Assembly: GCA_964445085.1 (NCBI GenBank)
Contig: CAYUJV010000001.1
Span: forward strand, 812 to 64,811
Source of the DNA: an uncultured Burkholderiales bacterium
Lineage (GTDB): Bacteria; Pseudomonadota; Gammaproteobacteria; Burkholderiales; Thiobacteraceae
Direction of reading: 5' to 3'
Length of the DNA stretch: 64,000 nt
How positions within the stretch are numbered: the stretch's first letter is position 1; the number at the start of each line of letters is the position of its first letter. Below the pieces are notes generated by a model. It worked only from the letters and a program-made list of their open reading frames with translations, searched no databases and was not told the origin of the DNA. Of this stretch, positions 98 to 45,479 are shown piece by piece. The position numbers were made by a program, and so were the translations under genes.

Positions 98-144
98 ATG
101 CATCTCCTCTAGACAAGGCGGCGAGCCGCCTTAACCTTACTCAA

Positions 145-159
145 GCAACGGCTGTGCCA
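145..159 (-). promoter_or_regulatory. sigma54 (-24/-12) promoter for prkA
   Basis: Minus strand reads TGGCAC-agccg-TTGC about 48 bp upstream of the prkA ATG. Confidence 0.6.
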
Positions 160-2142: not shown

Positions 2143-2401
2143 GCCGGATGCCGCGAAGCGCTGGGTGCTCGCCGAAATGAACACCCACCACTTCATGTTC
2201 CGCGGCGCGGGACACAGCCGGGAAAGCGCCAGGACCGCCTTGCTGAATGCATGGCGCGCCCATCGTACGGCACTGCTGGAGCGCTACCCGGAGCGGGCGG
2301 ATTCCATTCCGGACGAGCACCACATCGAAGCCCACTTCAAGATCTACTACCTGGACTTTGCAGAGGGTACGGGATACCGCGATGGCGAGCGTATCTTCTA
2401 G
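2135..2401 (+). CDS. hypothetical protein (88 aa)
   Basis: ORF-track ORF. The start overlaps the upstream stop by 8 nt (translational coupling). No recognisable domain. Confidence 0.5.
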   Translation: MTEPDAAKRWVLAEMNTHHFMFRGAGHSRESARTALLNAWRAHRTALLERYPERADSIPDEHHIEAHFKIYYLDFAEGTGYRDGERIF

Positions 2402-2524
2402 GGAAGCTTTGCAAAAGTACTGCGCAGCCCGTCTGCCCGCCTGCGATGCTCGCTGTACTTCCTTGTACAGGTGCGCTTCTCGGCGGCCAGCCGGGCTTGC
2501 TCGCGACCTTTTGCAGAGCTTCCC
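2401..2524. repeat. long-range inverted repeat between convergent genes (possible bidirectional terminator or MITE-like element)
   Basis: GGGAAGCTTTGCAAAAG (2401-2417) pairs with CTTTTGCAGAGCTTCCC (2508-2524) at 16/17. An inner hairpin CTGTAC-ttcctt-GTACAG sits at 2453-2470. Confidence 0.5.
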
Positions 2525-2536
2525 TAGCCGTTTGGG

Positions 2537-2836
2537 CTAGATATCCTCCTCGATGACCTCCATGGCGATCAGCTGCTCACGCAGCGCCATGTGGGCGTAG
2601 AACCCGCCCTTCGGGTCCAGCAGCGGCTCGCGCTGCAAGGCCATGATCGCCGCCGCGTCGTCCAGGTAGATGCGACACGCCTTGAGACTCTGCGTCAGCC
2701 GCGCGACGCCGGCATCGAAGTCATCCAGCGGCTCCGCGCCATGGCTTGCCCGCACCTTGCGAACGAAATCGTCGCGGTCGAATGCGAACCAGGCATGGGG
2801 CCGGCCCTGGTGGGGGATCTCGACGACGTAGATCAT
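2537..2836 (-). CDS. hypothetical protein (99 aa), third gene of a putative NifA/sigma54 operon
   Basis: ORF-track ORF with strongly GC3-biased codons. It starts 6 bp after the upstream gene. No recognisable domain. Confidence 0.6.
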   Translation of the reverse strand: MIYVVEIPHQGRPHAWFAFDRDDFVRKVRASHGAEPLDDFDAGVARLTQSLKACRIYLDDAAAIMALQREPLLDPKGGFYAHMALREQLIAMEVIEEDI

Positions 2837-2842
2837 CGGCGT

Positions 2843-3151
2843 TCAGTCGCGTGCCGCCATGGCCTTCTTCTGGACCAGACGGATGCGCTCGGCGAGGCCC
2901 TCCGGGCTCGACTCGAAGGCGGCGCGCGCTGCCTTGAGCGCGGCATTCGCCGCCAGCGCCTGTTCCCACGTCAGCGGCACACGGCCCGCCATGTGGGTGG
3001 CGTCGGGGGCGACCTTGAGGATGTTTTCCCGGTTGGGATGGTAGATGACCGGATCCAGGTCATCGGCTTCCTTCACGCCGCCCAGGTAGATGGCGTTGCC
3101 GATGACTTCCAGCTTGCGTCCATCGGCAGTGGTCTTGATCAGGACTCCCAT
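2843..3151 (-). CDS. hypothetical protein (102 aa), second gene of a putative NifA/sigma54 operon
   Basis: ORF-track ORF, 21 bp after the upstream gene. No Cys and no recognisable domain. Confidence 0.6.
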   Translation of the reverse strand: MGVLIKTTADGRKLEVIGNAIYLGGVKEADDLDPVIYHPNRENILKVAPDATHMAGRVPLTWEQALAANAALKAARAAFESSPEGLAERIRLVQKKAMAARD

Positions 3152-3172
3152 GGTATTGCCTCTCCGGCCGGA

Positions 3173-3763
3173 TCAGACCGGCCGATTCTCGCCCGGGTCG
3201 CGCACCGGGCCCATGACTTTCAGGCCTTCCTCGTAGCTCATGCTGGGAAAGCTGGCGGAAAACTTCAGCGCGGTGTCGGCAACACGGTCCACCTTGCCCG
3301 CGGTGTCGAGCTTCTTCAGGTCGTTGCGCTCCAGATACAGCAGATCGAGCAGTTCGTTGTATACCGTCGCCTCGTCGATGGGCAATACGTAGAACGTTTT
3401 TCCGTCGTAGGGGACCTGATATTTCTTGCTCAGGTCGATGTTGTTGCAGTAGAGAAAATACTTGCCGTCGGGCTTGAGAGTCGGCCCGATCGCGTCCGCC
3501 AGCGGCTTCAGGTATTCGAAGGACAGCAGGTAGGCCGCCATGAAATCGAGGCCGGCGCCGCCTTCCTCGGCCACGGCGATCACCTGATCGGCGGTGATCT
3601 CGGGGGGGCGCGCCTCATCGGCCAGCTTGGGCGCGAACTTGATGGCGATCTCGCCGCGGAAGCCAAAGCGGCCGGGCTTGCCGGTGGCGCCCTTGAACAC
3701 CGGGTTCTGCAGGCGCTGCTCGGCTTCGAGCTGTTTGAAAGGAGTCTGGTCTAGCGTGGTCAT
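3173..3763 (-). CDS. hypothetical protein (196 aa), first gene of a putative NifA/sigma54 operon
   Basis: ORF-track ORF. A sigma54-type promoter lies about 50 bp upstream. No recognisable domain. Confidence 0.65.
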   Translation of the reverse strand: MTTLDQTPFKQLEAEQRLQNPVFKGATGKPGRFGFRGEIAIKFAPKLADEARPPEITADQVIAVAEEGGAGLDFMAAYLLSFEYLKPLADAIGPTLKPDGKYFLYCNNIDLSKKYQVPYDGKTFYVLPIDEATVYNELLDLLYLERNDLKKLDTAGKVDRVADTALKFSASFPSMSYEEGLKVMGPVRDPGENRPV

Positions 3764-3813
3764 GGCTGAGCTCTTTGCAAAGGTTGAAAAGGCATTCGAT
3801 CAACCCCGCTGAT

Positions 3814-3828
3814 GCAAGAGCGATGCCA
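3814..3828 (-). promoter_or_regulatory. sigma54 (-24/-12) promoter
   Basis: Minus strand reads TGGCAT-cgctc-TTGC, the same TGGCAT variant as the nifB promoter. Confidence 0.6.
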
Positions 3829-3890
3829 GCCGCCCACGCCAAGCCTAAGCCCATGATGCGACGATGGAATCCGCTGGCTCCGGGAACGAG

Positions 3891-3916
3891 GGGCTTGTCG
3901 CGAATGCGACAAGCCC
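3891..3916. promoter_or_regulatory. perfect palindrome containing a NifA-type UAS (could also be the terminator of the 97-aa gene)
   Basis: GGGCTTGTCGC-gaat-GCGACAAGCCC. The core TGTCGCGAATGCGACA (3896-3911) fits TGT-N10-ACA and is centred about 77 bp upstream of the -24 element at 3823-3828. Confidence 0.55.
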
Positions 3917-3919
3917 GCG

Positions 3920-4213
3920 TCAGGCAAGCAGCTGCCCCTGCTCGTCAAAGCGCATCACCCGCGGATCCTCATCCGCCTCGGTGATTTCCGCCTGCTTCAG
4001 GATGCCATTGCCGTGGTATTCGTAGCGATGTTGCAGCTCCACCTCGCCGTACACGATCTTCTCGCACCGCACCATGCGACCGGTCTGGTCGAACCAGGCA
4101 CGGAAATAAGTGTTGCGATTGGCGATGTCGGCCTCCGCCAGCGGGTTCACCAGCTTCAGTGGCAGCTTCACTCCGCTGTAGCTCACGTAATAGCGGCACT
4201 CGACAGGGTCCAT
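3920..4213 (-). CDS. hypothetical protein (97 aa; recalls a DUF6156-type family from memory)
   Basis: ORF-track ORF: MDPVECRYYVSYSGVKLPLKLVNPL...VYGEVELQHRYEYHGNG. TATAAT (minus, 4248..4243) lies about 30 bp upstream. Confidence 0.6.
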   Translation of the reverse strand: MDPVECRYYVSYSGVKLPLKLVNPLAEADIANRNTYFRAWFDQTGRMVRCEKIVYGEVELQHRYEYHGNGILKQAEITEADEDPRVMRFDEQGQLLA

Positions 4214-4273
4214 GGCGGGAGTCTCCGGATGAGGTGGCAGCGATTATAGCCACGGCCACGCCACACTGAACCG

Positions 4274-4289
4274 TGTCGCAAAGCATACA
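4274..4289. promoter_or_regulatory. NifA-type UAS upstream of iscS
   Basis: TGTCGCAAAGCATACA fits TGT-N10-ACA and carries the extended TGTCGCAA half-site. It is centred about 88 bp upstream of the -24 element. Confidence 0.65.
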
Positions 4290-4367
4290 AAGCCTACACA
4301 AGGCGGCGACCCCTTCAATCGCTGTTTCCCCGCGGTTTTTCAGCACATTAGCCACGCGCCGCGCCCA

Positions 4368-4382
4368 TGGCACATGAGTTGC
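4368..4382 (+). promoter_or_regulatory. sigma54 (-24/-12) promoter of the isc-type operon
   Basis: TGGCAC-atgag-TTGC, 68 bp upstream of the iscS ATG. Confidence 0.7.
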
Positions 4383-4449
4383 TAAGGGTGATGGCGAGAG
4401 CGCGGCATGCCGGGTTGCCGCGCAAGCGATGCCAGAAGCGAGATCAAGT

Positions 4450-5661
4450 ATGCCCAAGCTGCCGATCTACCTCGATTACTCCGCCACCACGCCGGTCGAC
4501 CCGCGCGTGGCGGAGCAGATGATTCCTTATCTGACGGAAAAGTTCGGCAACCCCGCCTCGCGCTCTCATTCCTACGGCTGGGAAGCGGAGAAGGCCGTGG
4601 AGCAGGCGCGGGAGGAAGTCGCCGGCCTGGTCAACGCCGATCCCAAGGAGATCGTCTGGACTTCCGGCGCGACCGAATCGGACAACCTCGCCCTCAAGGG
4701 CGCGGCCCAGTTCTACAAGGGCAAGGGCCGGCACCTGATCACCATGAAGACGGAACACAAGGCGGTGCTGGATCCCATGCGCGAGCTGGAGCGTCAGGGT
4801 TTCGAGGTTACCTACCTCGACCCCGAGCCGAACGGCCTGCTCGACCTCGACAAATTCGCAGCCGCGATCCGCCCCGACACCGTCCTCGCCTCGGTCATGC
4901 ACGTGAACAACGAGATCGGCGTGATCCAGGACATCGAGACGATCGGCGAGCTCTGCCGCGCCAAGGGCGTGCTGTTCCACGTGGATGCCGCGCAATCCAC
5001 CGGCAAGGCGCCCATTGATCTCGCCCGCTTGAAAGTCGACCTGATGTCCTTCTCCGCCCACAAGACCTATGGCCCGAAGGGCATCGGTGCCCTGTACGTG
5101 CGGCGCAAGCCCAGAGTCCGCCTGGAAGCGCAGATGCACGGCGGCGGCCATGAGCGCGGCCTGCGCTCCGGCACCCTGCCCACGCACCAGATCGTCGGCA
5201 TGGGCGCCGCCTTCCGCATCGCCGCCGAGGAGATGGCCACCGAAAACGAGCGCATCCGCATGCTGCGCGACAAGCTGTGGGCCGGCATCAGCACTTTGGA
5301 AGAAGTGCACCTCAACGGCGACATGCAGCGCCGCGTGCCCCACAACCTGAACGCGAGCTTCAACTTCGTCGAGGGAGAATCGCTGATGATGGCAATCAAG
5401 GACCTGGCGGTGTCCAGCGGCTCCGCCTGCACCTCGGCCAGCCTGGAGCCGTCCTATGTGCTCAAGGCGTTGGGCCGTAGTGACGAGCTGGCCCACAGTT
5501 CGATCCGCTTTTCCATCGGCCGCTTCACCACCGAGGAAGAGATCGACTACGCCATTTCGCTCATCCACAAGCACGTGGGCAAGCTGCGCGAGCTGTCGCC
5601 GCTGTGGGACATGCACTGCGCCGGCATCGACCTGAACACCGTGCAGTGGGCGGCACATTGA
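4450..5661 (+). CDS. iscS: cysteine desulfurase, IscS type
   Basis: [20 protein letters not shown]...[10 protein letters not shown]...[14 protein letters not shown]...SSGSACTS is colinear with IscS. Internal ATG of ORF 4429..5661. Confidence 0.95.
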
Positions 5662-5666
5662 GGGGC

Positions 5667-5733
5667 GGGTAGCCTGTAGCGATAAAGTCGCGCGCAGCGC
5701 GGCATCAAGTGCCACCCGCTACAAGCTACCGGC
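5667..5733. repeat. palindromic REP-like element, family 1 (GTAGCTTGTAGC type), copy A
   Basis: GGTAGCCTGTAGCG ... GTCGCGCGCAGCGCG ... CGCTACAAGCTACC, in the iscS-iscU gap. Confidence 0.7.
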
Positions 5734-5758
5734 CACCGGCTCAAGATAGGAGATTGCA

Positions 5759-6193
5759 ATGTCTTACAGCGACAAGGTACTGGACCACTACGAGAACCCG
5801 CGCAATGTCGGCGGCTTCGAGGCGGACGATGCATCGGTCGGCACCGGCATGGTGGGCGCCCCGGCCTGCGGCGACGTGATGAAGCTGCAGATCAAGGTGA
5901 ACGACGCTGGCGTGATCGAGGAAGCGCGCTTCAAGACCTACGGCTGCGGCTCGGCCATCGCTTCCAGTTCGCTGGTGACGGAATGGGTCAAGGGCAAGAC
6001 GCTGGACCAGGCGCTGGCGATCAAGAACACCGACATCGCCGAAGAGCTGGCCCTGCCGCCGGTGAAGATCCACTGCTCCATCCTGGCCGAGGACGCCATC
6101 AAGGCGGCCGTGGCCGACTACCGCAACAAGCACGAAGTCGCCGACGCCGGCTACGCCGCCTGCGACCCCAGTTCAGTATCTGGCGCCGCCTAA
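5759..6193 (+). CDS. iscU: Fe-S cluster assembly scaffold IscU
   Basis: [18 protein letters not shown]...[11 protein letters not shown]...[11 protein letters not shown]...[18 protein letters not shown]. Confidence 0.95.
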
Positions 6194-6210
6194 CACAGGA
6201 GATTAGACAG

Positions 6211-6555
6211 ATGGAAGCCGACACCATGAGCCCGATCAACTTCACCGACGCCGCCGCCAACAAGGTCAGGGAAATGATCGCCGACGAAGGCAACGCCGCG
6301 CTAAAACTGCGCGTCTACGTCTCCGGCGGCGGCTGTTCCGGTTTCCAGTACGGCTTCGCCTTCGACGAAAACCGCGCCGAGGACGACACCGTGGTGGAGA
6401 AATGCGGCGTGTCGCTGCTGATCGACCCGATGAGTTTCCAGTACCTGATGGGCGCGGAGATCGACTACCAGGAGAGCCTGGACGGTGCGCGCTTCGTGAT
6501 CAAGAACCCCAACGCCACCTCCACCTGCGGCTGCGGCAGTTCGTTCTCGATGTAA
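6211..6555 (+). CDS. erpA: A-type Fe-S carrier, ErpA-like
   Basis: [39 protein letters not shown]...[11 protein letters not shown] is near-colinear with ErpA as I recall it. Alternative start at 6226. Confidence 0.85.
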
Positions 6556-6566
6556 GGAAGCGAACC

Positions 6567-6890
6567 ATGGCCATCACACTGTCAGAACGCGCCGCCAACC
6601 GGGTCCAGAAGTTTCTTTCCCAGCGCGGCAAGGGCATCGGCCTGCGCCTGGGCGTGCGCACCAGCGGCTGCTCCGGCATGGCCTACACGCTGGAGTTCGT
6701 GGACGAGTCCGCCCCGGATGATCTCAGCTTTGAATCCCACGGCGTGACCGTGCTCATCGACCCCAAGAGCCTGCCTTTTCTCGATGGCACCGAACTGGAC
6801 TTCGTGCGCGAGGGCTTGAACGAGGGTTTCAAGTTCAACAATCCCAATGTGAAGAACACCTGCGGCTGCGGGGAAAGCTTCAACGTTTGA
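6567..6890 (+). CDS. iscA: A-type Fe-S carrier IscA
   Basis: [40 protein letters not shown]...[11 protein letters not shown]. Internal ATG of ORF 6402..6890. Confidence 0.9.
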
Positions 6891-6904
6891 GTGGAGGCCA
6901 CGGC

Positions 6905-7045
6905 ATGAACCACGACCGCAACATGATTCCTCCGGTGCTTGCAGCCGCCGCGATGACCGTCTGCCGGCAATACCTGCCCTTTGCCGTCTGCTCCGGCTTC
7001 GTGGCCCTGGTACTTCAGGTGGTGAGCGGATTGCGCTTTCACTAG
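6905..7045 (+). CDS. possible 46-aa hydrophobic peptide in the slot normally occupied by hscB
   Basis: [46 protein letters not shown]. Below the ORF-track cutoff, with no RBS evident. Confidence 0.2.
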
Positions 7046-7061
7046 ACAGAGCGAAGACATC

Positions 7062-8930
7062 ATGGCCCTCCTCCAGATCGCAGAACCCGGCTTGTGCGCC
7101 GATCCTCACCAGCATCGGCTCGCCATCGGCATTGATCTGGGCACCACCAACTCCCTGGTGGCCACGGTGCGCAGCGGCGAGACGACGGTGCTGGATGACG
7201 AAGCCGGTCGCCCCCTGCTGCCCTCGGTCGTGTGCTACCTTGACGACGGCCAGGTGGAAGTGGGCCACGCCGCCCAGGCGCGCCAGAGCGATGACCCCCA
7301 CAACACCATCGTGTCGGTGAAGCGCTTCATGGGGCGCGGCCTGAAGGACGTGCCGGACGCCGCATCCACACCCTACCGCTTCGTCGACACCCCGGGCATG
7401 GTGCGCCTGGAAACCCGTGCCGGCGTGAAGAGCCCGGTGGAGGTGTCGGCGGAAATCCTCAAGACCCTGCGCGCCCGCGCCGAAGCGGCCCTCGGCGGCG
7501 AACTCACCGGCGCGGTGATCACGGTGCCTGCCTATTTCGACGACGCCCAGCGCCAGGCGACCAAGGACGCGGCGCGGCTCGCCGGCATCAACGTGCTGCG
7601 GCTGCTCAACGAGCCCACCGCCGCCGCGGTGGCCTACGGGCTGGACAATGCCTCGCAGGGCACGTTCTGCGTCTACGACCTGGGCGGCGGCACCTTCGAC
7701 ATTTCCATCCTGCGCCTCAAGCAGGGCATCTTCGAAGTGGTGGCCACGAACGGCGATTCCACCCTCGGCGGCGACGACTTCGACGAACGCATCTACCGCT
7801 GGATCGTCGACCAGTGCGGCATGACCGGCCTCTCCGCCGGCGACATGCGCCTGCTCCTGAGCGCGGCGCGCAGGGCAAAGGAGGCCCTGACCGATGCCGA
7901 GGAAACCCGCATCGCCGTCACGCTCTCCTCCGGCCGGACCATCAACCTGAATTTGAGCGCAGACACGTTCTTCGCCCTCACCGCCGATCTCGTCGCGCGC
8001 ACCCTGGGACCGACGCGCAAGGCCCTGCGCGATGCCGGTCTGGCTGCCGAGGACATCGACGGCGTGGTGCTGGTCGGCGGTTCCACCCGCATGCGCCACG
8101 TGCGCGAGGCGGTGCAGAAATACTTCCACCGCGAGCCGCTCACCAATCTCGACCCGGACAAGGTGGTGGCCCTGGGCGCCGCCATGCAGGCCAACCTGCT
8201 GGTGGGCAACCGCAAGGCGGACGACTGGCTGCTGCTGGATGTGATCCCCCTGTCCCTGGGGCTGGAGACCATGGGCGGCCTGGCGGAGAAGGTCATTCCG
8301 CGCAATGCCACCATCCCCGTCGCACGGGCGCAGGAGTTCACCACCTTCAAGGACGGCCAGACCGCGATGAGCATCCACGTGGTGCAGGGCGAGCGCGAGC
8401 TGGTGAATGACTGCCGGTCCCTCGCCCGCTTCGAGCTGCGCGGGATTCCGCCCATGGTGGCGGGCGCGGCGCGCATCCGCGTCACCTTCCAGGTGGACGC
8501 CGACGGCCTGCTGTCCGTCTCGGCGCAGGAGCAGACCAGCGGTGTGCAGGCGACGATCGAGGTCAAGCCCTCCTATGGGCTCTCCGACGACGAGATCGCG
8601 CGCATGCTGCGGGAGTCCTACACCCATGCCCAGGATGACATGGACGCGCGCAACCTGCGCGAGCAGCGGGTGGACGGCCTGCGCCTGATCGAAGCGACCC
8701 AGGCGGCCCTGGACCAGGATGGCGCGGCCCTGCTGTCCGACACCGAGCGCGCCGGCATCGAACGGGCAATGGAAACGCTGCGGGTGCTGCTCAACGGCCC
8801 GGACTGGAATGCCATCAAGCGCGCCGCCGATTCGCTCAACCGCGTCACCACCCAGTTCGCCGCGCGGCGCATGGACGCGAGCGTCCAGCGCGCCCTGTCG
8901 GGACAGCGGCTGGATGCGATCGAGGTCTGA
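7062..8930 (+). CDS. hscA: Fe-S cluster assembly chaperone HscA (Hsp70 type)
   Basis: 622 aa. [13 protein letters not shown]...DLGGGTFD...[12 protein letters not shown], with an HscA-type N-terminus [10 protein letters not shown]. Confidence 0.95.
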
Positions 8931-9394: not shown

Positions 9395-9487
9395 GTGGGA
9401 AGACGTCCCTCTCCGCCGGGGTGAGGGTGCGGCGATCCCAATCCCGCCCACCACGTTGAACGCCGGCCTTTTTTGCGGAGGTCCCTC

Positions 9488-10600
9488 ATGCGCATCGGCG
9501 TCCCGAAGGAAATCAAGGACCATGAATACCGTGTCGGCGTCACCCCTGCCGGCGTGAGCGCGTTCAAGGCCCACGGCCACGGCGTGCTGGTGGAAGCCGG
9601 GGCCGGCGCGCGCATCGGCTTCAGCGATGCCCTGTACGAGGCGGCGGGCGCCATGATCGCCGGCCGCAGCGAAGTCTACGCCTGCGACATGATCGTCAAG
9701 GTCAAGGAACCGCAGCCCACGGAGGTCTCCTTGCTGCGCGAGGGGCAGGTGCTGTTCTGCTACCTGCATCTCGCTCCCGAGCCGGAACTCACCCGCGGCC
9801 TGCTCGAACGCAAGGTCATCGGCATCGCCTACGAGACGGTCACCGACGCCCAGGGCGCCCTGCCGCTGCTCACGCCCATGTCGGAAGTCGCCGGCCGCCT
9901 CGCGGTGCAGGCCGGCGCCACGGCGCTGCAGATCGCCAACGGCGGCAGCGGCGTGCTGCTCGGCGGCGTGCCGGGCGTGGCGCCGGGCAAGGTGCTCGTC
10001 CTGGGCGGCGGCGTGTCGGGCATCAATGCCGCGAAGCTGGCGCTGGGTCTCGGTGCCGACGTCACCGTGCTCGACATCAACCTCGCGCGGCTGCGCTATC
10101 TGGACGACGTATTCGGCATGCGCCTGAAAACGCGCTTCTCCGAACCGGCCGCGCTCGCCGCGCTCACGCCCGAGGCCGACCTGGTCATCGGCGCCGTCCT
10201 CATCCCGGGCGGGCGCGCGCCGCAGCTGTTGACGCGCGAGATGATCAAGGCGATGAAGCCGGGCTCCGCTTTCGTGGACATCGCCATCGACCAGGGCGGC
10301 TGCGCCGAGACCTCGCGCCCCACCACCCATTCCGACCCGACCTATGTCGAGCATGGGGTGGTGCACTACTGCGTCACCAACATGCCCGGCGCCACCGCGC
10401 GCACCTCCACCCTGGCCCTGACCCAGGCCACGCTGCCGCTGGCGCTGGAGCTGGCGGACAAGGGCTACGCCCGCGCGCTCCTGGACAATCCCGGGCTGCA
10501 GGATGGGCTGAACGTGTTTCGCGGCCAGGTCACGCATCCGGCGGTGGCGGCGGATCTTGGCTATGCGCTGGAGCCGGTGGAGACGGCGTTGGCGGCATAG
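9488..10600 (+). CDS. ald: alanine dehydrogenase
   Basis: [23 protein letters not shown]...[14 protein letters not shown]...[19 protein letters not shown]. Confidence 0.9.
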
Positions 10601-10866: not shown

Positions 10867-10882
10867 TGTCGCAATCCCTACA
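10867..10882. promoter_or_regulatory. NifA-type UAS upstream of nifV
   Basis: TGTCGCAATCCCTACA, centred about 93 bp upstream of the -24 element. Confidence 0.65.
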
Positions 10883-10965: not shown

Positions 10966-10981
10966 TGGCACAGCCCTTGCT
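10966..10981 (+). promoter_or_regulatory. sigma54 (-24/-12) promoter of the nifV operon
   Basis: TGGCAC-agccc-TTGCT, 40 bp upstream of the nifV ATG. Confidence 0.7.
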
Positions 10982-11019
10982 CCATACCCAAGCGAAAGCG
11001 ATTCATCTTCGGAGCGAAC

Positions 11020-12162
11020 ATGGCCCAACCTTCGGTAGTCGTAAACGACACGACCCTGCGCGATGGCGAGCAGACCGCCGGCGTGGCCTTCACCGCCGAA
11101 GAGCGCATCGCCATCGCCCGCGCCCTGGCCGCGGCCGGGGTGCCGGAAATGGAGGTCGGCATTCCGGTGATGGGGCCGGACGAGCAAGAGAACATCCTCG
11201 CCATCGCCCGGCTCGGCCTGCCGTCGAATCTCATGGCGTGGGGCCGCATGTGCGACGCCGACCTGACCGCCGCCGCCAGCTGCGGCGTGCATATCGTCAA
11301 CCTGTCGATCCCGGTGTCCGACATCCAGATCCGCCACAAGCTGGGCCGCGACCGGGAATGGGTGCTCGACAGCATCACCCACTTCGTGAGCATGGCCCTG
11401 GATCTGGGCATGGACGTGTGCGTCGGCGGCGAGGACGCCTCGCGCGCCGACATGGATTTCCTGCTGCGGGTGGTCGACGCGGCCCAGGTCGCCGGCGCGC
11501 GCCGCTTCCGCTTCGCCGACACCCTGGGCCTGCTTGACCCGTTCACCACGTTCAAGCGCATCAACCAGCTGCGCGAGGCCACCGACCTGGAGCTGGAGAT
11601 GCATGCCCATAACGACCTCGGCCTGGCGACGGCCAACACCCTCGCCGCCGTGCTCGCCGGTGCCACGCACATCAACACCACGGTCAATGGCCTCGGCGAG
11701 CGCGCCGGCAACGCCGCGCTGGAGGAATCCGTCACCGCGATGCATCACCTGTACAACGTGCAGACCGGCATCGACACCCGCCACTTCCCGGAGATTTCGC
11801 GCCTCGTGGCGATCGCATCCGGTCGACCGGTCCCCGTGAACAAGAGCATCGTCGGCGACGGCGTGTTCACCCACGAGTCCGGCATCCACGTTGATGGCCT
11901 GATCAAGAACCCTCTCAACTACCAGGGCCTCCCCCCCGAGGAAGTCGGCCGCACCCACAAGCTGGTGCTCGGCAAGCATTCCGGCTCGAGCGCGGTCAGG
12001 CAGGCCTATGCCGGCATCGGCATCACGCTCACCGATTTCGAGGCCAAGACGCTGCTGGCCCGCATCCGCGAACACGCCGTGGCCACCAAGCGCACCCCGA
12101 CGCCGGCGGACCTGGAGCGCTTCTATCTCGAAGCGCTGCCCCGCGCGCTGGCGCGGTCCTGA
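11020..12162 (+). CDS. nifV: homocitrate synthase NifV
   Basis: VNDTTLRDGEQTAGVAF...HAHNDLGLATANTLAA...VNGLGERAGNAALEE. Internal ATG of ORF 10639..12162. Confidence 0.9.
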   Translation: MAQPSVVVNDTTLRDGEQTAGVAFTAEERIAIARALAAAGVPEMEVGIPVMGPDEQENILAIARLGLPSNLMAWGRMCDADLTAAASCGVHIVNLSIPVSDIQIRHKLGRDREWVLDSITHFVSMALDLGMDVCVGGEDASRADMDFLLRVVDAAQVAGARRFRFADTLGLLDPFTTFKRINQLREATDLELEMHAHNDLGLATANTLAAVLAGATHINTTVNGLGERAGNAALEESVTAMHHLYNVQTGIDTRHFPEISRLVAIASGRPVPVNKSIVGDGVFTHESGIHVDGLIKNPLNYQGLPPEEVGRTHKLVLGKHSGSSAVRQAYAGIGITLTDFEAKTLLARIREHAVATKRTPTPADLERFYLEALPRALARS

Positions 12163-13346: not shown

Positions 13347-14192
13347 ATGCACATCGTCGTCTGCATCAAGCAGGTTCCGGACAGCGCCCAAATCCGCGTG
13401 CATCCGGTGACCAACACCATCATGCGCCAGGGCGTGCCGGCCATCGTCAACCCCTACGACCTGTTCGCGCTGGAAGAGGCGCTGCGCCTGAAGGACCAGT
13501 ACGGCGCCCGCGTCACCGTGCTGTGCATGGGCCCGCCCCAGGCCGAGGCCGCGTTGAGGAAGGCCATCTCCTTCGGTGCCGACGACGCCATCCTGGTCAC
13601 CGACCGCGCCTTCGCCGGCTCCGACACCCTGGCCACCAGCTTCGCCCTGGCCTCCGCCATCAGGAAAATCCAGGAAGACATGCCGGTGGACATCGTGTTC
13701 GCCGGCAAGCAGACCATCGACGGCGACACCGCCCAGGTCGGACCCGGCATCGCCAAGCGCCTGGACCTGCAGCTGCTGACCTACGTGTCGAAGATCGTCG
13801 AGCTCGACCTGGAACGGCGCGAGATCACCCTGCACCGGCGCGCCGAAGGCGGCGTGCAGGTTCTGAAAACGCAACTGCCCTGCCTGATCACCATGCTCGA
13901 AGGCACCAACGAGATGCGTTTCGCCACCATGGCCAACATGTTCCGCGCCGCGCGCTATCCCTTGAAACAGTGGGACAAGGACGCCGCCGGCATCGAGGAC
14001 GTGAGCAAGATCGGCCTCAAGGGCTCGCCCACCATCGTGAGCAAGGTGTTCGCGCCGCAGCCCAAGTCGCAGCGTGCAGAGATGATCGACTGCGAAAGCC
14101 GCGAGCCGAAGGATTTGTCGGTCACCCTGCTGACGAAGATGTTCACCAAATTCCCGCACCTGGCCGAGGAAATCGGCAAGAACGGCGCATAG
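13347..14192 (+). CDS. fixA: electron transfer flavoprotein beta subunit FixA
   Basis: MHIVVCIKQVPDSAQIRVHP... is EtfB-like, directly upstream of fixBCX. Confidence 0.9.
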   Translation: MHIVVCIKQVPDSAQIRVHPVTNTIMRQGVPAIVNPYDLFALEEALRLKDQYGARVTVLCMGPPQAEAALRKAISFGADDAILVTDRAFAGSDTLATSFALASAIRKIQEDMPVDIVFAGKQTIDGDTAQVGPGIAKRLDLQLLTYVSKIVELDLERREITLHRRAEGGVQVLKTQLPCLITMLEGTNEMRFATMANMFRAARYPLKQWDKDAAGIEDVSKIGLKGSPTIVSKVFAPQPKSQRAEMIDCESREPKDLSVTLLTKMFTKFPHLAEEIGKNGA

Positions 14193-14216
14193 CGGACGGC
14201 ACCAGAGGATCAAGCC

Positions 14217-15308
14217 ATGAGCGAAACAACCGAACAGAAAAAACCCGCCGGGCGGCGCAAATTCGAGCTCGACCCGCGCCTGGCGTCATACAAGGGCGTG
14301 TGGGTCTTCGTCGAGCACGAGCGCGGCGTGGCCCACCCGGTGTCTTGGGAGCTGATGGGCGAAGGCCGCAAGCTGGCCGACAAACTCGGGGTGCCGCTGG
14401 CCGGCGTGGTGATGGGGGCGCCAGGCATCGCGACCCGCAAATTCTGTCAGGAGGCCTTCCACTACGGCGCCGACCTCTGCTACCTGATGGAAGACCCGCT
14501 GCTGTCCGACTACCGCAACCAGCCCTTCACCAAGGGGCTGACCGATCTGGTCAATGCCTATCAGCCTGAAATCCTGCTGCTGGGCGCAACGACACTCGGC
14601 CGCGACCTGGCCGGCAGCGTCGCCACCACCCTGCAGACCGGGCTCACCGCCGACTGCACCGAGCTCAACATCGACATGGAAAACCGCAGCCTGGCCGCGA
14701 CCCGCCCAACCTTCGGCGGCAGCCTGCTGTGCACCATCGTCACCCTGAACTACCGCCCGCAGATGGCCACCGTGCGGCCGCGGGTGATGAGCATGCCAAA
14801 GAAGGACGACACCCGCACCGGCAGCATCACCGAGCACCCGCTGGGCATGATTGAAACCGACATCGTCACCAAGGTGCTCGAATACATCCCCGACAACCTC
14901 GCCGGCAAGCCGCAGCTGCCCTTCGCCGACATCATCGTGTCCGGCGGGCGCGGCATGAAGCGCCCGGAGAATTTCCAGCTGATCTGGGACCTGGCCAAGG
15001 TGCTGGGGGCCGAAGTCGGCGCCACCCGGCCGGTGGTGCAGGCCGGCTGGGTGGAACTGGATCGCCAGGTTGGCCAGTCCGGCAAGACCGTGCGCCCCAA
15101 GCTCTACATCGCCGCCGGCATCTCCGGCGCGATCCAGCACCGCGTCGGCATGGAGGGCTCGGACGTGATCATCGCCATCAACACCGACGAGAACGCGCCG
15201 ATCTTTGACTTCGCCACCTACGGCATCGTCGGCAATGCGATGACGGTATTGCCGGCGCTGACCGAGGCGTTCCGGCAGCAATTGGCGACGGCAAAGGTGG
15301 CGGTTTGA
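14217..15308 (+). CDS. fixB: electron transfer flavoprotein alpha subunit FixB
   Basis: EtfA-like C-terminus: IVSGGRGMK...RPVVQAGW...[25 protein letters not shown]. Confidence 0.9.
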
Positions 15309-15317
15309 ACACCGATC

Positions 15318-15446
15318 TCACCACAGAGGCACAAAGACACAGAGAAATGCACAACCATTTTCATAAAATCAGTGCCAAGTCGCCTGAGTGGCCAGCAACG
15401 AGACACCGGTGTGGGTTTTCTCTGTGCCTCTGTGTCTCTGTGGTGA
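15318..15446. repeat. REP family 2 inverted pair in the fixB-fixC gap
   Basis: TCACCACAGAGGCACAAAGACACAGAGAA (15318-15346) and TTCTCTGTGCCTCTGTGTCTCTGTGGTGA (15418-15446) form an imperfect inverted repeat around a 71-bp AT-richer loop. Confidence 0.65.
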
Positions 15447-15463
15447 ACGCTAAGGAGTAATCA

Positions 15464-16762
15464 ATGGACGAAAAATTTGACGCAATCGTAGTCGGCGCCG
15501 GCCCGTCGGGCAATGCCGCGGCCTACACCCTGGCCAAGGCCGGTCTGAAGGTCTTGCAGATCGAGCGTGGCGAATACCCGGGCTCGAAGAACGTGCAGGG
15601 CGCGATCCTGTACTCCAAGGCGCTGGAGGAAATCATCCCCGACTTCCGCGAAGACGCGCCGCTGGAGCGCCACATCATCGAACAGCAGATGTGGGTGCTG
15701 GACGACGAGTCCTACGTCGGCTCCACCTACCGCTCCGCCGAGTTCAACAAGCAGCCCTACAACCGCTACACCATCATCCGCGCCCAGTTCGACAAGTGGT
15801 TCTCCAAGCGCGTGCAGGAGGCTGGCGCGCTGCTGGTGTGCGAGACCACCGTCACCAATCTGATCATGGACCGCGACCGCGTGATCGGCGTGCAGACCGA
15901 CCGCGAGGGCGGCTCGGTGTACGCGGATGTGGTCATCCTGGCCGATGGGGTGAACTCGCTGCTGGCGAAGAAGGCCGGCTTCCATCCCGAGCTCGAACCC
16001 AAGGACGTGGCGCTGGCGGTGAAGGAAATCCACTTCCTGCCGGAAGAAACCATCCAGACCCGCTTCAACATCGGCGAGGGCGAAGGCGTGGTGATCGAGA
16101 TGGCGGGCAAGATCACCCAGGGCATGATGGGCACCGGCTTCCTCTACACCAACAAGGACTCGCTCACCATCGGCGTCGGCTGCATGCTGTCCGACTTCAA
16201 GCAGCAGAAGACCACACCTTACATGCTGCTGGAGCAGATGAAGGCCCATCCCGCCATCAAGCCCCTGATCGCCGGTGGCGAGATGAAGGAATACACCGCG
16301 CACCTGATCCCGGAAGGCGGCTACAAGGCCATGCCCAGGCTCGTCGGCGAGGGCTGGATGATCGTCGGCGACTCTGGCATGTTCGTCAACGCGGTGCACC
16401 GCGAAGGCTCGAATCTCGCCATGACCACCGGGCGCCTCGCCGCCGAGACCGTGATCGACCTCAAGCAGAAGAACCTGCCGATGACCGCCGCCAACCTCGC
16501 CTACTACCAGGGCCGGCTGGAAGACAGTTTCGTCATGAAGGACCTGAAGAAGTACAAGAACATGCCGGAAATCTTTCATAAGAATAACCAGTTCTTCACC
16601 GACTATCCGGAGCTGGTGAACCGCGCCGCCCACACCATGCTGACCGTGGACGGCGTGGACAAGAAGACCAAGGAGCGCCAGATCCGCGAGAGCTTCCGGC
16701 AGCGGCGCTCGATGTTCGGCCTGATGGGCGATGCGTTCAAGTTTTGGAGGGCTTTCGAATGA
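15464..16762 (+). CDS. fixC: ETF-quinone oxidoreductase-like flavoprotein FixC
   Basis: FDAIVVGAGPSGNAAAYTLAKAG FAD-binding motif. 432 aa, in the fixABCX context. Confidence 0.9.
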   Translation: MDEKFDAIVVGAGPSGNAAAYTLAKAGLKVLQIERGEYPGSKNVQGAILYSKALEEIIPDFREDAPLERHIIEQQMWVLDDESYVGSTYRSAEFNKQPYNRYTIIRAQFDKWFSKRVQEAGALLVCETTVTNLIMDRDRVIGVQTDREGGSVYADVVILADGVNSLLAKKAGFHPELEPKDVALAVKEIHFLPEETIQTRFNIGEGEGVVIEMAGKITQGMMGTGFLYTNKDSLTIGVGCMLSDFKQQKTTPYMLLEQMKAHPAIKPLIAGGEMKEYTAHLIPEGGYKAMPRLVGEGWMIVGDSGMFVNAVHREGSNLAMTTGRLAAETVIDLKQKNLPMTAANLAYYQGRLEDSFVMKDLKKYKNMPEIFHKNNQFFTDYPELVNRAAHTMLTVDGVDKKTKERQIRESFRQRRSMFGLMGDAFKFWRAFE

Positions 16763-17052
16763 TCCCGGTGAAAGTAGAGGAAAAGCTGTTCCAGAACCGC
16801 TACCGCGTCGATCCCGGCCGGCCGCACATCAGCATCAGGAACCCCACCACCTGCCAGGTGGAATGCAAGACCCAGGAATGCACGGTCTGCTGTCCCGCCG
16901 GCTGCTACACCGCGGAAGGCAATGGCCAGGTGGTGCTGATCACCGATGGCTGCCTGGAATGCGGCACCTGCCGCATCATCTGCACCACCTACCGCAATGT
17001 GGACTGGGAGTATCCGCGCGGCGGATACGGCATCCTGTTCAAGTTTGGATGA
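16759..17052 (+). CDS. fixX: ferredoxin-like protein FixX
   Basis: MIPVKVEEKLFQNRYRVD...CPAGCY...CLECGTCRIIC. ATGA overlap with the fixC stop. Confidence 0.85.
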   Translation: MIPVKVEEKLFQNRYRVDPGRPHISIRNPTTCQVECKTQECTVCCPAGCYTAEGNGQVVLITDGCLECGTCRIICTTYRNVDWEYPRGGYGILFKFG

Positions 17053-18903: not shown

Positions 18904-19545
18904 CTAGACGGCTTCCACCGCCGGCGCCGCCCGGCCGCTGGCCAGCGACAGGGCACCCAGTCCCGTGGCATCTTCCGGGCCGAAGCACTTGTGGTAGTCG
19001 TCGCACACCTGGCAGCTCGGCGCCTTGCACAGATTCACCTCGGCCCGGTCGCACAGCTGCTTGTAGAAGAACTTCTTCCACTTCATGTTGCCGACGTTCT
19101 TGTCGTGCAGGGTGGTGAAGTTGTTGCGCAGGATGTCGGACAGCGCCTGCCGCCCCGTAAGGCCCATGTCCTGCCACAGGTGGTTGCTGCCCATGCAGCC
19201 GGTGGCGATGGCATAGGCCAGCCAGGTCACCTCGTCGCGGTCGCTGGCACGGTGTTCCAGCAACAGGGCCACCAGATCCTGGATCTCGTCCTCGCGGAAC
19301 GCGGGACAGGAAGCCTGATCGTCTGCCAAGTCCCCTGTCATGAACAGCGCCTGCGTGGCGCCGGGGAAGTAGCGGTCGAGCAGGCAGCCGAACTGGGTTT
19401 CGGTCAGCCCGAAAAAGAATGCCGGAAAAACCCCCTGGGCGAAGGCAGTCCTGACGGCCCCTGCAAACGCCTGGGTCAACACATCGTCGGGCCGGGCGGC
19501 GTAGGCCATCAGCTGCTCGTGGCTCACCGGAACGTGCGCATCCAT
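18904..19545 (-). CDS. nifQ: nitrogen fixation protein NifQ (Mo processing)
   Basis: C-terminal CKAPSCQVCDDYHKC motif (Cx4Cx2Cx5C) and the NifQ-type block MKWKKFFYKQLC. Confidence 0.85.
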   Translation of the reverse strand: MDAHVPVSHEQLMAYAARPDDVLTQAFAGAVRTAFAQGVFPAFFFGLTETQFGCLLDRYFPGATQALFMTGDLADDQASCPAFREDEIQDLVALLLEHRASDRDEVTWLAYAIATGCMGSNHLWQDMGLTGRQALSDILRNNFTTLHDKNVGNMKWKKFFYKQLCDRAEVNLCKAPSCQVCDDYHKCFGPEDATGLGALSLASGRAAPAVEAV

Positions 19546-19561
19546 GCTGCATCCCCTTCGT

Positions 19562-19876
19562 TCATTCCGCGGGCATTGCCGCGTGCGTGTAGCAATCCTT
19601 CGGGCAGATCTTGGAGCACGCCTCGCAGCCGACACAGTTCATCTGGTTGGCGATGGTCATGACCTTGCGCTCGTATTCCTCGTCGTCGTCATCGTCGCTG
19701 CCGAGCTGCACCGGGATGAATTCGCCGTCCTCGGTCACTCCGACGAGTTGCAGCACGTCGCGGCCGCACACCCGGAAACAGCGGCCGCAGCCGATGCACT
19801 TCTCCTGATTGATCGCCCCGACAAATTTTGGCGTCCAGCTGCGCCCGTCGGGCATGGTGACAGTGACGAAGGCCAT
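19562..19876 (-). CDS. fdxB: nif-specific ferredoxin III (FdxB type, 2x[4Fe-4S])
   Basis: [14 protein letters not shown] ... acidic DDDDDEE linker ... [15 protein letters not shown]. Confidence 0.85.
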
Positions 19877-27664: not shown

Positions 27665-29309
<1,645 letters not shown>

Positions 29310-29338
29310 GTCGGCCCTTGCGTGTCGATTCCATCGAA

Positions 29339-29353
29339 GCAACGCCTGTGCCA
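29339..29353 (-). promoter_or_regulatory. sigma54 (-24/-12) promoter of the Rrf2 gene
   Basis: Minus strand reads TGGCAC-aggcg-TTGC, 30 bp upstream of the Rrf2 ATG. Confidence 0.55.
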
Positions 29354-29420: not shown

Positions 29421-29436
29421 TGTCGCAAACCATACA
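29421..29436. promoter_or_regulatory. NifA-type UAS shared by divergent promoters
   Basis: TGTCGCAAACCATACA. Centred about 77 bp from the minus-strand -24 and about 93 bp from the plus-strand -24. Confidence 0.6.
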
Positions 29437-29519
29437 CTCCGGCCCGGCTTGTCCGACATGCGACAGGCTTGGGTGGCGCGCCACCGCGCCAGGCCGCATG
29501 CCGACGAGGCCTGTGCGAT

Positions 29520-29995: not shown

Positions 29996-30810
29996 CCGTC
30001 GCCGCGCTGCGGGGACACAGCGCCAACCTGGTGGGCGTTCCCACCGGCCTGCTGGCGAGCGTCGCGTTCAACGAAGATCCGCTCCCTCTGCACATCCACG
30101 GCGTGCGTGCCGGCCATGCGCGGCTGTTCGATCTCCTGGCGACGGCGACCACACCCGCGGAGGCGGGGAAACGGTTTCAGGACTATATGGACGAGAGTTT
30201 CGACTTGCGCCCGAGGCAGACATCAGCCGGTGACGGCACCGTGCGCCGCTTCCGCGCCAGCTACCTGCGCCTGCTCAAGGGCTGGGGTTTCGACGCCAAC
30301 AGCCGCGAAGGGGCCGTCATCAAAGGCTGGGCGGAGAGCCGCTTCGGCCTGTTTCCGACCTTCCACAAGACAACACTCACGCGCTTTGGCTCCCAGGCCT
30401 GGGCGCGCTACGTGGAGGAGAAAATGTCCAGCCGCTTCCACAACAACGACATCTTCGGCCAGCTGGACCTGCTGTACGAATTTTGCCAGTGGTCGCTCGG
30501 CCGCTGGTTCCAGCCGGGACGGCGCCATGTGCGCCTGTACCGCGGCGTCAACGACTTCAGCGAGGACAGCCTGCTGCGCGGGCAGCCGAAGCCGCGCAGC
30601 GGGCCGGCCCTGGTGCGGCTGAACAACGTCGTCTCCTTCACCGCCCACCGCAGCATTGCCTGCGAATTCGGCGACTACATCCTGGAGGCCCTCGTGCCCA
30701 CCGTGAAGATCCTGTTCTTCAACGACCTGCTGCCGCGCCACGCGCTCAAGGGCGAAGCCGAATATCTGGCGATCGGCGGCGAGTACCGCGTCATGGTCAG
30801 CTATCTCTGA
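29992..30810 (+). CDS. draT: NAD+--dinitrogen-reductase ADP-D-ribosyltransferase DraT
   Basis: SANLVGVPTGLLASVAFNEDPLPLHIHGVR...FQDYMDESF...LYEFCQWS. ATGA overlap with the receiver gene. Confidence 0.85.
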   Translation: MTVAALRGHSANLVGVPTGLLASVAFNEDPLPLHIHGVRAGHARLFDLLATATTPAEAGKRFQDYMDESFDLRPRQTSAGDGTVRRFRASYLRLLKGWGFDANSREGAVIKGWAESRFGLFPTFHKTTLTRFGSQAWARYVEEKMSSRFHNNDIFGQLDLLYEFCQWSLGRWFQPGRRHVRLYRGVNDFSEDSLLRGQPKPRSGPALVRLNNVVSFTAHRSIACEFGDYILEALVPTVKILFFNDLLPRHALKGEAEYLAIGGEYRVMVSYL

Positions 30811-30819
30811 GAAGCGGCC

Positions 30820-31749
30820 GTGATCGGGGACGACGTGCAGGAACGCGCGCTGGGCGCCTATCTGGGCTTCGCCGTCGGCGACGCCCTGGGAGCAACGGTC
30901 GAATTCATGACAGCCGCCGAGATTCAACACAACTACGGCATGCACCGCGACATGATCGGTGGCGGCTGGCTCAAGCTCAGGCCGGGCGAGGTCACCGACG
31001 ACACGCAGATGTCCCTGGCGCTGGGACAGGCCATCGTCGACAGCGGCGGCTGGAATGCGCGCGCCGCCGCCGATGCTTTCGCCGCGTGGCTCAAGTCCAA
31101 ACCCATCGACGTGGGCAACACCTGCCGCCGCGGGATTCAGCGCTACATCATGGAGGGTACGCTGGCCGGCCCGCCCAACGAAGGCGACGCCGGCAACGGC
31201 GCCTGCATGCGCAACCTGCCGCTGGCGCTCGCGACGCTGACTGATGACGAAGCATTCGCGCGCGCGACCTTGGAGCAGTGCCACCTCACCCACCACCATC
31301 CCTTGTCGGACGCCGCCACGCTGGCCTTCGGAAGAATGACGCGCACCCTGATCCGCGGCGGCGGCTTCAGGGACTGCCGGGCGGAGGCGAACCGCCTGAT
31401 CGATGCGTTTCCGGTGTTCCGCTTCGACCCCTATCCCAGGCGCGCCTCGGGCTATATCGTCGATACGACCCAGACGGTGCTGCACTATTTTTTCCGCACC
31501 GACAACTTCGAGGATTGCGTGACCGAGGTGGTGAACCGCGGCGAGGACGCGGACACCAACGGCGCGCTGGCCGGCATGCTGGCGGGCGCCGCCTATGGCG
31601 TATCGGACATTCCGGGCTACTGGCTGAAGAAGCTGGACAAGAAAGTCCGGGCGCGCATCGAGGAGCAGACCGAGGCGCTGCTGGGCATCGCCGCCACAAT
31701 ACCCAAGGGGCAAGAATCGAGTCGGAAGCCCCGGCAACCTGCGCCCTGA
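30820..31749 (+). CDS. draG: ADP-ribosyl-[dinitrogen reductase] glycohydrolase DraG
   Basis: GTG start. ALGAYLGFAVGDALGATVEF...EVTDDTQM...GEDADTNGALAGMLAGA (ARH family signatures). Confidence 0.85.
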   Translation: MIGDDVQERALGAYLGFAVGDALGATVEFMTAAEIQHNYGMHRDMIGGGWLKLRPGEVTDDTQMSLALGQAIVDSGGWNARAAADAFAAWLKSKPIDVGNTCRRGIQRYIMEGTLAGPPNEGDAGNGACMRNLPLALATLTDDEAFARATLEQCHLTHHHPLSDAATLAFGRMTRTLIRGGGFRDCRAEANRLIDAFPVFRFDPYPRRASGYIVDTTQTVLHYFFRTDNFEDCVTEVVNRGEDADTNGALAGMLAGAAYGVSDIPGYWLKKLDKKVRARIEEQTEALLGIAATIPKGQESSRKPRQPAP

Positions 31750-43439: not shown

Positions 43440-43519
43440 GCCCTGGCTCCTGTCCGGTTCAACCGCTGGCGATCGCGCCAGCGACCGCCCGTCAAATGAG
43501 TTCGTACACGAGCCGTTCA

Positions 43520-43534
43520 GCAACAAGCATGCCA
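43520..43534 (-). promoter_or_regulatory. sigma54 (-24/-12) promoter of nifB
   Basis: Minus strand reads TGGCAT-gcttg-TTGC, about 80 bp upstream of the nifB ATG. Confidence 0.7.
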
Positions 43535-43591: not shown

Positions 43592-43607
43592 TGTCGCAAC
43601 TGCTACA
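43592..43607. promoter_or_regulatory. NifA-type UAS upstream of nifB
   Basis: TGTCGCAACTGCTACA, centred about 67 bp from the -24 element. Confidence 0.65.
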
Positions 43608-45392: not shown

Positions 45393-45464
45393 ATCAGCCA
45401 ACCCCGCTGGGCCGGATGACGGCCCCAAGAAACAACAATGGTGACACCATGGTCATTTCAGGGA

Positions 45465-45479
45465 GCAAGTAGCGTGCCA
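45465..45479 (-). promoter_or_regulatory. sigma54 (-24/-12) promoter of nifA
   Basis: Minus strand reads TGGCAC-gctac-TTGC, about 70 bp upstream of ATG 45392. Confidence 0.6.

Follow-up and report, generated by a model that had tools for sequence, protein, structure and literature searches.

Here we report a three-gene unit on the minus strand of a 64-kb stretch of contig CAYUJV010000001.1 (the window, below, means this whole stretch), whose closest relatives are Thiobacillus-like metagenome-assembled genomes (MAGs). The window carries a molybdenum nitrogenase (nif) cluster, and the three genes inside it are called p196, p102 and p99 after the lengths of their products. They very probably form one transcription unit that depends on the activator NifA and on sigma-54, and very probably encode three conserved Mo-nitrogenase accessory proteins of no known family. 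Control by NifA and sigma-54 is supported by a conserved promoter and activator footprint, by the nifA gene in the window, by published data on p196 homologues in a symbiont and by the linkage of all three proteins to nif genes in many genomes. In the window p196 is divergent from a nif-type iscS gene, and nifHDKENB, nifA, nifQ and nifV all lie within 42 kb.

Coordinates of the unit refer to the minus strand throughout. The p196 gene (196 aa, 3763-3173) is followed after 21 nt by p102 (102 aa, 3151-2843) and after a further 6 nt by p99 (99 aa, 2836-2537). Their G+C content at third codon positions (GC3) is 0.83-0.88, as in other genes of the window; a 387-aa open reading frame (ORF) antisense to them (2591-3754, plus strand) has a GC3 of 0.67 and was rejected as an artefact of high G+C. 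The sigma-54 promoter TGGCATCGCTCTTGCA is located at 3828-3813, with its -24 GG at 3827-3826 and its -12 GC at 3815-3814. It fits TGGCAC-N5-TTGCW, with the GG and GC 10 nt apart, and its TTGC ends 50 nt ahead of the p196 ATG. From the usual sigma-54 geometry, transcription is predicted to start near 3803. Farther upstream lies a NifA upstream activator site (UAS) at 3891-3916, a 26-nt perfect palindrome with arms GGGCTTGTCGC and GCGACAAGCCC (3891-3901 and 3906-3916) around a 4-nt spacer. Its core TGTCGCATTCGCGACA (3911-3896), of the form TGTCGC-N4-GCGACA, is the sole perfect match in the 64 kb, and the palindrome is centred 76.5 nt upstream of the -24 GG.

The same arrangement precedes nif genes of the window: iscS (promoter 4368-4383, UAS 4274-4289), nifV (promoter 10966-10981, UAS 10867-10882), nifH (promoter 28697-28712, UAS 28782-28797) and nifB (promoter 43519-43534, with TGGCAT as its -24 hexamer, UAS 43592-43607). 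Textbook nifH-type NifA promoters such as these resemble that of p196 in that their GG-N10-GC element fits TGGCAC-N5-TTGCW, TGT-N10-ACA is found 65-110 nt upstream, the half-site is TGTCGC and the same cluster encodes NifA. As promoters they differ from it only in the genes that they control; the p196 palindrome, unlike the nifH-type sites, reaches a length of 26 nt and lies right against the stop of an inserted gene. At iscS, nifV, nifH, nifB and a gene for an Rrf2-family regulator, the distance from UAS to GG ranges from 66.5 to 108.5 nt; that of p196 equals the distance at the Rrf2 promoter (29338-29353; 76.5 nt) and is near that of nifH (78.5 nt). Neither motif is as frequent by chance. 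TGGC-N7-TTGCW occurs 8 times in the window (1.68 expected) and TGT-N10-ACA 14 times (5.67 expected), numbers that none of 100 shuffles reached in either case, and the majority of these sites are paired upstream of nif genes. An initial annotation of this DNA, made from its letters and ORFs, had described the three ORFs with gaps of 21 and 6 bp, a -24/-12 element about 50 bp before the 196-aa ORF, a palindrome about 77 bp upstream of the -24 element with a core fitting TGT-N10-ACA, a likeness in geometry and half-site to the nifH, nifB, nifV and iscS promoters and a TGGCAT hexamer in common with nifB; all of this proved correct.

The Rrf2-family gene (IscR/NsrR-like, 28854-29306, minus strand) lies between nifH and draT and has, besides its own sigma-54 promoter, two TGT-N10-ACA sites, which are 76.5 nt (29421-29436) and 105.5 nt (29450-29465) away from the GG. 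From this arrangement it seems that a NifA-controlled regulator responsive to Fe-S clusters or nitric oxide (NO) is part of the nif cluster. One further sigma-54-like site (144-159, minus strand) was seen close to the window edge.

A sigma-54 promoter may serve many activators, and this one might be real and yet be activated by NtrC or another enhancer-binding protein in place of NifA. The promoter of nifA itself is a case in point: a sigma-54-like site lies just upstream of that gene (45464-45479, minus strand) and no TGT-N10-ACA site accompanies it. The p196 UAS, however, is a perfect NifA-type site with the TGTCGC half-site that is common to the nifH, nifB, nifV and iscS sites, the P. phymatum homologues of p196 considered below are NifA-dependent, and, judged by the NtrC consensus, the site is not of the NtrC type. 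We consider control by another activator improbable.

The palindrome raises a second question, namely whether it serves the gene upstream of it. This gene (97 aa, 3920-4213, minus strand) matches DUF6156 and lies between the iscS UAS and the p196 UAS; the palindrome begins only 3 nt past its stop codon, and the 66-nt context folds stably (-35.5 kcal/mol, z = -3.9). The palindrome might thus do no more than terminate the DUF6156 transcript or stabilise its 3' end, and the -24/-12 match might be silent; a terminator with a silent match had been considered in the initial annotation itself. Related genomes allow the two functions to be told apart. In about 20 loci of Thiobacillus, Sulfuriferula and related MAGs, p196 is directly divergent from nif-type iscS across an intergenic region of 314-466 nt, and the DUF6156 gene is absent from this region in 21 related loci. 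Where p196 is divergent from iscS and the DUF6156 gene is missing, TGGCA(T/C)-N5-TTGC is kept 46-51 nt ahead of the p196 ATG, and most of these loci also have TGT-N10-ACA centred 76-77 nt upstream of the GG. In an alignment of 18 such upstream regions, the UAS, the -24/-12 element and a leader with the ribosome-binding site stand out as conserved islands amid drifting sequence, and CTGGCA and TTGC are invariant in all 18. In the conserved leader TTCAAC...TTGCAAAGAGC (3770-3788, minus strand), AAAGAG is the ribosome-binding site and lies 7 nt ahead of the ATG. A fourth conserved block, ATCATGG(G/A)CTTAGG, lies between UAS and promoter, reads ATCATGGGCTTAGG in the window (3844-3857, minus strand) and is two mismatches away from the consensus WATCAANNNNTTR of the integration host factor (IHF). 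IHF sites between UAS and promoter are common, although not universal, at NifA-dependent promoters, and by its similarity to the consensus we regard this block as a candidate IHF bending site. A -24/-12 element and TGT-N10-ACA are also found upstream of p196 in more distant lineages, including Rhodoferax, other Burkholderiales, alphaproteobacterial MAGs and Bradyrhizobium.

Some 20 loci from which the DUF6156 gene is missing have preserved both the 16-nt core and the promoter, with unchanged spacing. More than a terminator, the core is therefore an activator site, and the idea of a mere terminator was rejected for this reason. The same 16-mer is, moreover, a published predicted NifA site in Azoarcus. 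The stem is not followed by a U-run in its tail CUCGUUCCCGG, so it does not qualify as an intrinsic terminator, and a scan of 2200-4500 for terminators and sigma-70 promoters found no promoter and, on the minus strand, no terminator. On the other side stand the stable fold so near the DUF6156 stop and the outer arms GGGCT/AGCCC (5 bp extra per side), which only this window has among the 18 aligned loci; since they are found here only, the stem was possibly lengthened after the DUF6156 gene arrived. It is plausible that the palindrome secondarily serves the inserted gene by forming a 3' hairpin; a terminator role alone, with a silent promoter, we hold to be highly improbable. By eye, hexamers TTCAGT-16 nt-TATAAT can be seen upstream of the DUF6156 gene (about 4262-4233), which the sigma-70 scan did not report.

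Relatives of p196 have appeared in published regulatory studies under other names. In nodules formed by a nifA mutant of Paraburkholderia phymatum STM815, Bphy_7752 and Bphy_7807 were the two most strongly down-regulated measurable genes, with log2 fold changes of -11.54 and -11.11, and in the same comparison nifD and nifH changed by -10.05 and -7.40 (PMC8305402). Both encode hypothetical proteins on the symbiotic plasmid pBPHY02, are p196 homologues with 58% identity across 98% of the length, and are extremely NifA-dependent in nodules. Bphy_7752 is divergent from nifHDK. Unlike p196 of the window, it is followed by ankyrin-repeat and zinc-ribbon genes instead of p102 and p99, and the P. phymatum genes are duplicated and plasmid-borne.

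In Azoarcus sp. BH72, the conserved hypothetical gene azo0536, which adjoins draT (azo0537), has two predicted sites, one for RpoN, which contains TGGCATCGTTCTTGC, and one for NifA, TGTCGCATTCGCGACA (PMC3916325, supplement). The latter is identical to the NifA site of p196, and the RpoN site is one base off within TGGCATCG(C/T)TCTTGC. Its place beside draT matches the arrangement of p196 and draT in 29 loci. We take azo0536 as a probable p196 orthologue, from synteny and the identical regulatory sites, because the p196-draT arrangement is common (29 of the 80 loci described below). A third record is Bll1754 of Bradyrhizobium diazoefficiens, which belongs to the core microoxic proteome and whose transcript is 120-fold up in bacteroids (PMC6515984). 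It is divergent from blr1755 (iscA-type)-nifS-nifT, the place that p196 has in Bradyrhizobium loci L008 and L009; its probable orthology to p196 derives from synteny alone, and the table of PMC6515984 does not flag it as a NifA and RpoN target.

From these three records it follows that NifA dependence of the p196 family has already been observed, though the protein is unnamed and unstudied. The initial annotation had called the three products previously unassigned members of the NifA regulon. Its regulatory part stands on the evidence listed at the outset; "previously unassigned" does not hold for the p196 family, whose homologues were already published as NifA-dependent or nif-induced hypothetical proteins. 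No literature on p102 or p99 was found.

Activation by NifA and the transcript ends in this organism are predicted from its DNA, and the events at the promoter may be pictured as follows. At low oxygen and low fixed nitrogen, NifA (43776-45428) would bind TGT-N10-ACA at 3896-3911, about 100 nt upstream of the predicted start. By looping of the DNA it would contact sigma-54 polymerase at TGGCAT-N5-TTGC (3828-3813), the IHF-like block possibly aiding the bend, and would drive open-complex formation at the p196 promoter. The transcript would run from near 3803 through p196, p102 and p99, with its probable end at a hairpin at 2398-2527. Of the products, p196 may be a non-Fe-S protein that keeps nitrogenase working under oxygen or NO, together with a truncated haemoglobin (GlbO/GlbN) where one is present, and p102 and p99 may be a further accessory pair. 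That p196 supports nitrogenase under oxygen or NO stress is proposed with low confidence.

The hairpin is a long, near-perfect structure of about 130 nt, with arms CTAGGGAAGCT(C/T)TGCAAAAG and an inner palindrome TGTACAAGGAAGTACA. Situated between the p99 stop and the stop of a convergent ORF on the plus strand (2135-2401), it folds as RNA at -79 kcal/mol (z = -6.7) and is present in a single copy in the window. The transcript likely has its 3' end there. Possible readings of the hairpin are a bidirectional transcript end and an element like a MITE (miniature inverted-repeat transposable element) or REP (repetitive extragenic palindrome), both of them small non-coding DNA that is repeated or mobile. 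When 2200-4500 was scanned with Rfam for known RNAs, only noise was obtained, with no match for the hairpin.

The p196 family is large and well conserved. At the 90% cluster level it has 2607 relatives, every named one of which is annotated as "hypothetical", and at the 50% level it forms 221 clusters; a relative is encoded in at least 532 of 185,579 species genomes. Identity to p196 is 65-94% over Beta-, Gamma- and Alphaproteobacteria and Acidithiobacillia and 49% in Bradyrhizobium loci, and two alignments (A1, A2) cover the full length with 69-94% identity to homologues. Conservation is comparable to that of NifK and NifE and well above that of NifQ, DraG and a SIR2-like protein of the same loci, where identities are 65-70% for p196, 40-50% for NifQ and 50-65% for DraG. 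Invariant features are GRFGFRGE, ADEARPPE, the single cysteine (Cys106) in CNNIDL and the C-terminal NRPV. The confident AlphaFold model of p196 (predicted local distance difference test, pLDDT, 86.6; predicted template-modelling score, pTM, 0.86) has a beta-sheet core, a helical C-terminal part and a disordered tail.

None of the three proteins could be placed by searches. Pfam, NCBIfam and PHROGs gave no match for p196, p102 or p99, with best E-values of 0.17 or worse in Pfam and NCBIfam, and the profiles for NifT, NifW, NifZ, NifX/NafY, NifQ, CowN, DUF269, Rop-like proteins, DUF6129 and DUF6156 left them unmatched; only the upstream 97-aa gene matches DUF6156. Nothing was found in a Pfam scan of ten distant p196 relatives, and profiles of all three families had no relatives among PDB sequences (best E-value 0.074). 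A Foldseek search of the p196 and p102 models against the PDB returned nothing below E = 0.01; its top matches, McrC (template-modelling score, TM, 0.29) and a tyrosinase caddie protein (TM 0.25), are at noise level and were discarded. The initial annotation had noted no placeable motif in the three proteins and, from their few or absent cysteines, that they are probably not Fe-S proteins. Both statements agree with the profile and PDB-sequence searches of all three, with the fold searches of p196 and p102 and with the cysteine counts, which are 1, 0 and 1 for p196, p102 and p99; multi-cysteine ligand motifs are lacking. The single cysteine of p196, Cys106, is invariant, and that of p99, Cys54, is nearly so.

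Gene neighbourhoods were compared at 80 genome loci encoding a p196 relative, with nif linkage defined as within 10 kb. Nif or nif-type accessory genes are near p196 in 78 of the 80: core nif genes in 66, and nif-type isc, fix, draG or SIR2 genes in 12 more. The two loci without nif linkage are a 1.7-kb contig and one Gammaproteobacteria MAG. The p196 gene is divergent from nifH in 44 loci and from iscS in 20 and follows nifQ in 3; in Acidithiobacillus it follows nifQ inside a long operon, and in Bradyrhizobium it is divergent from iscA-nifU-nifS. In a distant branch of 187-aa proteins, whose cluster includes a Sulfurovum protein, the gene lies among nifS, NifX-type, NifU-domain and ferredoxin genes.

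The closest neighbour of p196, and the commonest, is a gene for a truncated haemoglobin (PF01152), which is directly beside it on the same strand in 43 of the 80 loci, in either order (e.g. L051:9552-10588 and L020:10001-11100). In some loci it is upstream, and the codons of the two genes overlap or touch; in others it is downstream. One protein, P0084, is a natural in-frame fusion of the haemoglobin and p196. Within the iscS-divergent clade two gene sets stand behind the same NifA promoter: in L020-L033 it is p196 and then the haemoglobin gene, and in the window, L010-L019 and L024 it is p196-p102-p99, so that p102 and p99 of the window occupy the downstream place that the haemoglobin gene has in sister genomes. 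GlbO and GlbN, the nif-island truncated haemoglobins, belong to a protein family other than that of p196. According to a preprint of 2026, an insertion mutant in the nif-island glbO of Bradyrhizobium ORS285 lost its free-living nitrogenase activity; the nif-island glbO of Bradyrhizobium is reported to support free-living and not symbiotic nitrogenase activity, and in the authors' view further protective factors must exist, which are missing in symbiotic strains (bioRxiv 10.64898/2026.05.28.728359). The adjacency in 43 of 80 loci and the fusion together suggest a role of p196 in oxygen handling for nitrogenase.

An extended form of this proposal, which we offer tentatively and hold to be possible rather than probable, is that p196 represents a new, widespread family of nitrogenase accessory proteins with a fold unmatched in the PDB, which would keep nitrogenase active under oxygen or NO by physical action either with the truncated haemoglobin of the nif island or directly with NifH or NifDK. 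The invariant, disordered C-terminal NRPV tail and Cys106 would be its contact or redox elements, and p102-p99 would be a second new module able to replace the haemoglobin in the operon.

The neighbours also allow a different reading, in which oxygen protection is not the main task of p196 and it chiefly assists the nif-specific assembly of Fe-S clusters or cofactors, or the control of NifH by DraT/DraG. It is divergent from nif-type iscSUA-hscA genes here and in 20 loci and from iscA-nifU-nifS in Bradyrhizobium, lies downstream of nifS in the distant branch and after nifQ in Acidithiobacillus, and is followed on the same strand by draT-draG in 29 of the 80 loci. Divergence from iscS or nifH may, however, reflect only a shared regulatory region, p196 has one cysteine, and its closest and commonest neighbour, in both orders and with a fusion besides, is the truncated haemoglobin gene rather than any of these. 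An assembly or DraT/DraG role is a serious minority possibility that we would not favour.

Besides the window, about ten Thiobacillus-like and Gammaproteobacteria loci have the order p196-p102-p99. In Burkholderiales, about 13 genomes (L060-L064, L083 and others; e.g. L053:4180-6690) have p102-p99 directly after nifK on the same strand, a position taken by nifT-nifY in Azotobacter-type clusters, and p196 is on the other side of nifH. Because p102-p99 follow nifK elsewhere while p196 sits apart, the trio of the window is a local combination of two independently nif-linked modules. Its description as a three-gene operon therefore probably holds for this genome, where the genes are joined with short gaps, and does not extend to a fixed unit, p196 being found elsewhere with the truncated haemoglobin gene, with draTG or with both.

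There are 134 relatives of p102, including Xanthobacter and Bradyrhizobium proteins. Its motifs are KTTxDGR, HPNR and PDATHMAGRVPL, and in its confident AlphaFold model (pLDDT 90.7) a hairpin of two helices comes after a small beta domain. The p99 family has 224 relatives, and the protein of the window is the shorter of its two forms, about 60 internal residues of the 158-160-aa form (P0274, P0306, P0307 and others) being absent from it; both forms are present in many genomes. As two small adjoining ORFs of no known family, separated by 6 nt and with a MITE-like hairpin element just downstream, p102 and p99 might be taken for a toxin-antitoxin-like pair or mobile cargo hitch-hiking in the cluster. 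In about 13 Burkholderiales genomes, however, the pair has a fixed place after nifK, and in about 11 other genomes it comes after p196; this argues against such a pair, as do the occurrence of p102 in Bradyrhizobium nif clusters, its relatives in Xanthobacter genomes and the lack of any Pfam, NCBIfam or PHROG match. A cargo pair is extremely unlikely.

Several observations weigh against a NifA- and sigma-54-dependent unit of nitrogenase accessory genes, or against the role in oxygen handling suggested for p196. No rpoN gene is present in the 64-kb window, and the 3' hairpin at 2398-2527 has no U-tract. The microarray changes of azo0536 are small and disagree in sign: N2 fixation gave +1.9 and the NifA comparison -2.5 (PMC3916325). 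No truncated haemoglobin gene was found in the 64-kb window, so the proposed partner of p196 is missing here. The draT-draG and nif-type iscS/nifS neighbours fit a regulatory or Fe-S role of p196 equally well, and with neither a cofactor motif nor a matching fold in p196, any biochemical role for it is a guess. Finally, the Gammaproteobacteria MAG L096, the only long locus that is unlinked, has no nif gene within 10 kb of p196. In this locus (L096:8206-10965) CCG/Fe-S and Rieske genes precede p196, and p102 is convergent; in this MAG, too, p196 has redox genes around it. Nearby lie genes of the zinc-ribbon, ankyrin/rhodanese and glutaredoxin kinds.

The remaining nif genes of the window are arranged as follows. 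The plus strand carries iscS-iscU-iscA-iscA-hscA (4429-8930), ald (9473-10600), nifV (about 11014-12162), fixABCX (13347-17052) and draT-draG (30010-31749), and the minus strand nifQ (18904-19635), nifN, nifE, nifK, nifD and nifH (21151 to about 28543), nifB (41880 to about 43400) and nifA (43776-45428). The nifA product has GAF, sigma-54 AAA+ and HTH_8 domains, and from its C-X11-C-X19-C-X4-C motif we take it to be of the oxygen-sensitive, NifL-independent type. A Zn_ribbon_8 ORF (775-1008) and an ankyrin-like ORF (34165-34548), both on the plus strand, are homologues of genes that follow the Paraburkholderia/Cupriavidus homologue of p196 (L092, L093); a TGT-N10-ACA site (750-765) lies immediately ahead of the ATG of the zinc-ribbon ORF.

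The regulatory design of the unit is standard, so nothing new is learned from it about NifA. Its value lies in three unnamed, strongly conserved families of the nif cluster, above all p196 and its linkage to the haemoglobin. In spite of its occurrence in more than 500 species and the top NifA dependence in one symbiont, p196 has no name, family entry or structural relative, and it is an obvious candidate for one of the further protective factors proposed in the glbO preprint. The finding bears on how aerobic bacteria shield nitrogenase from oxygen, and on which genes to transfer when nitrogen fixation is engineered into new hosts.

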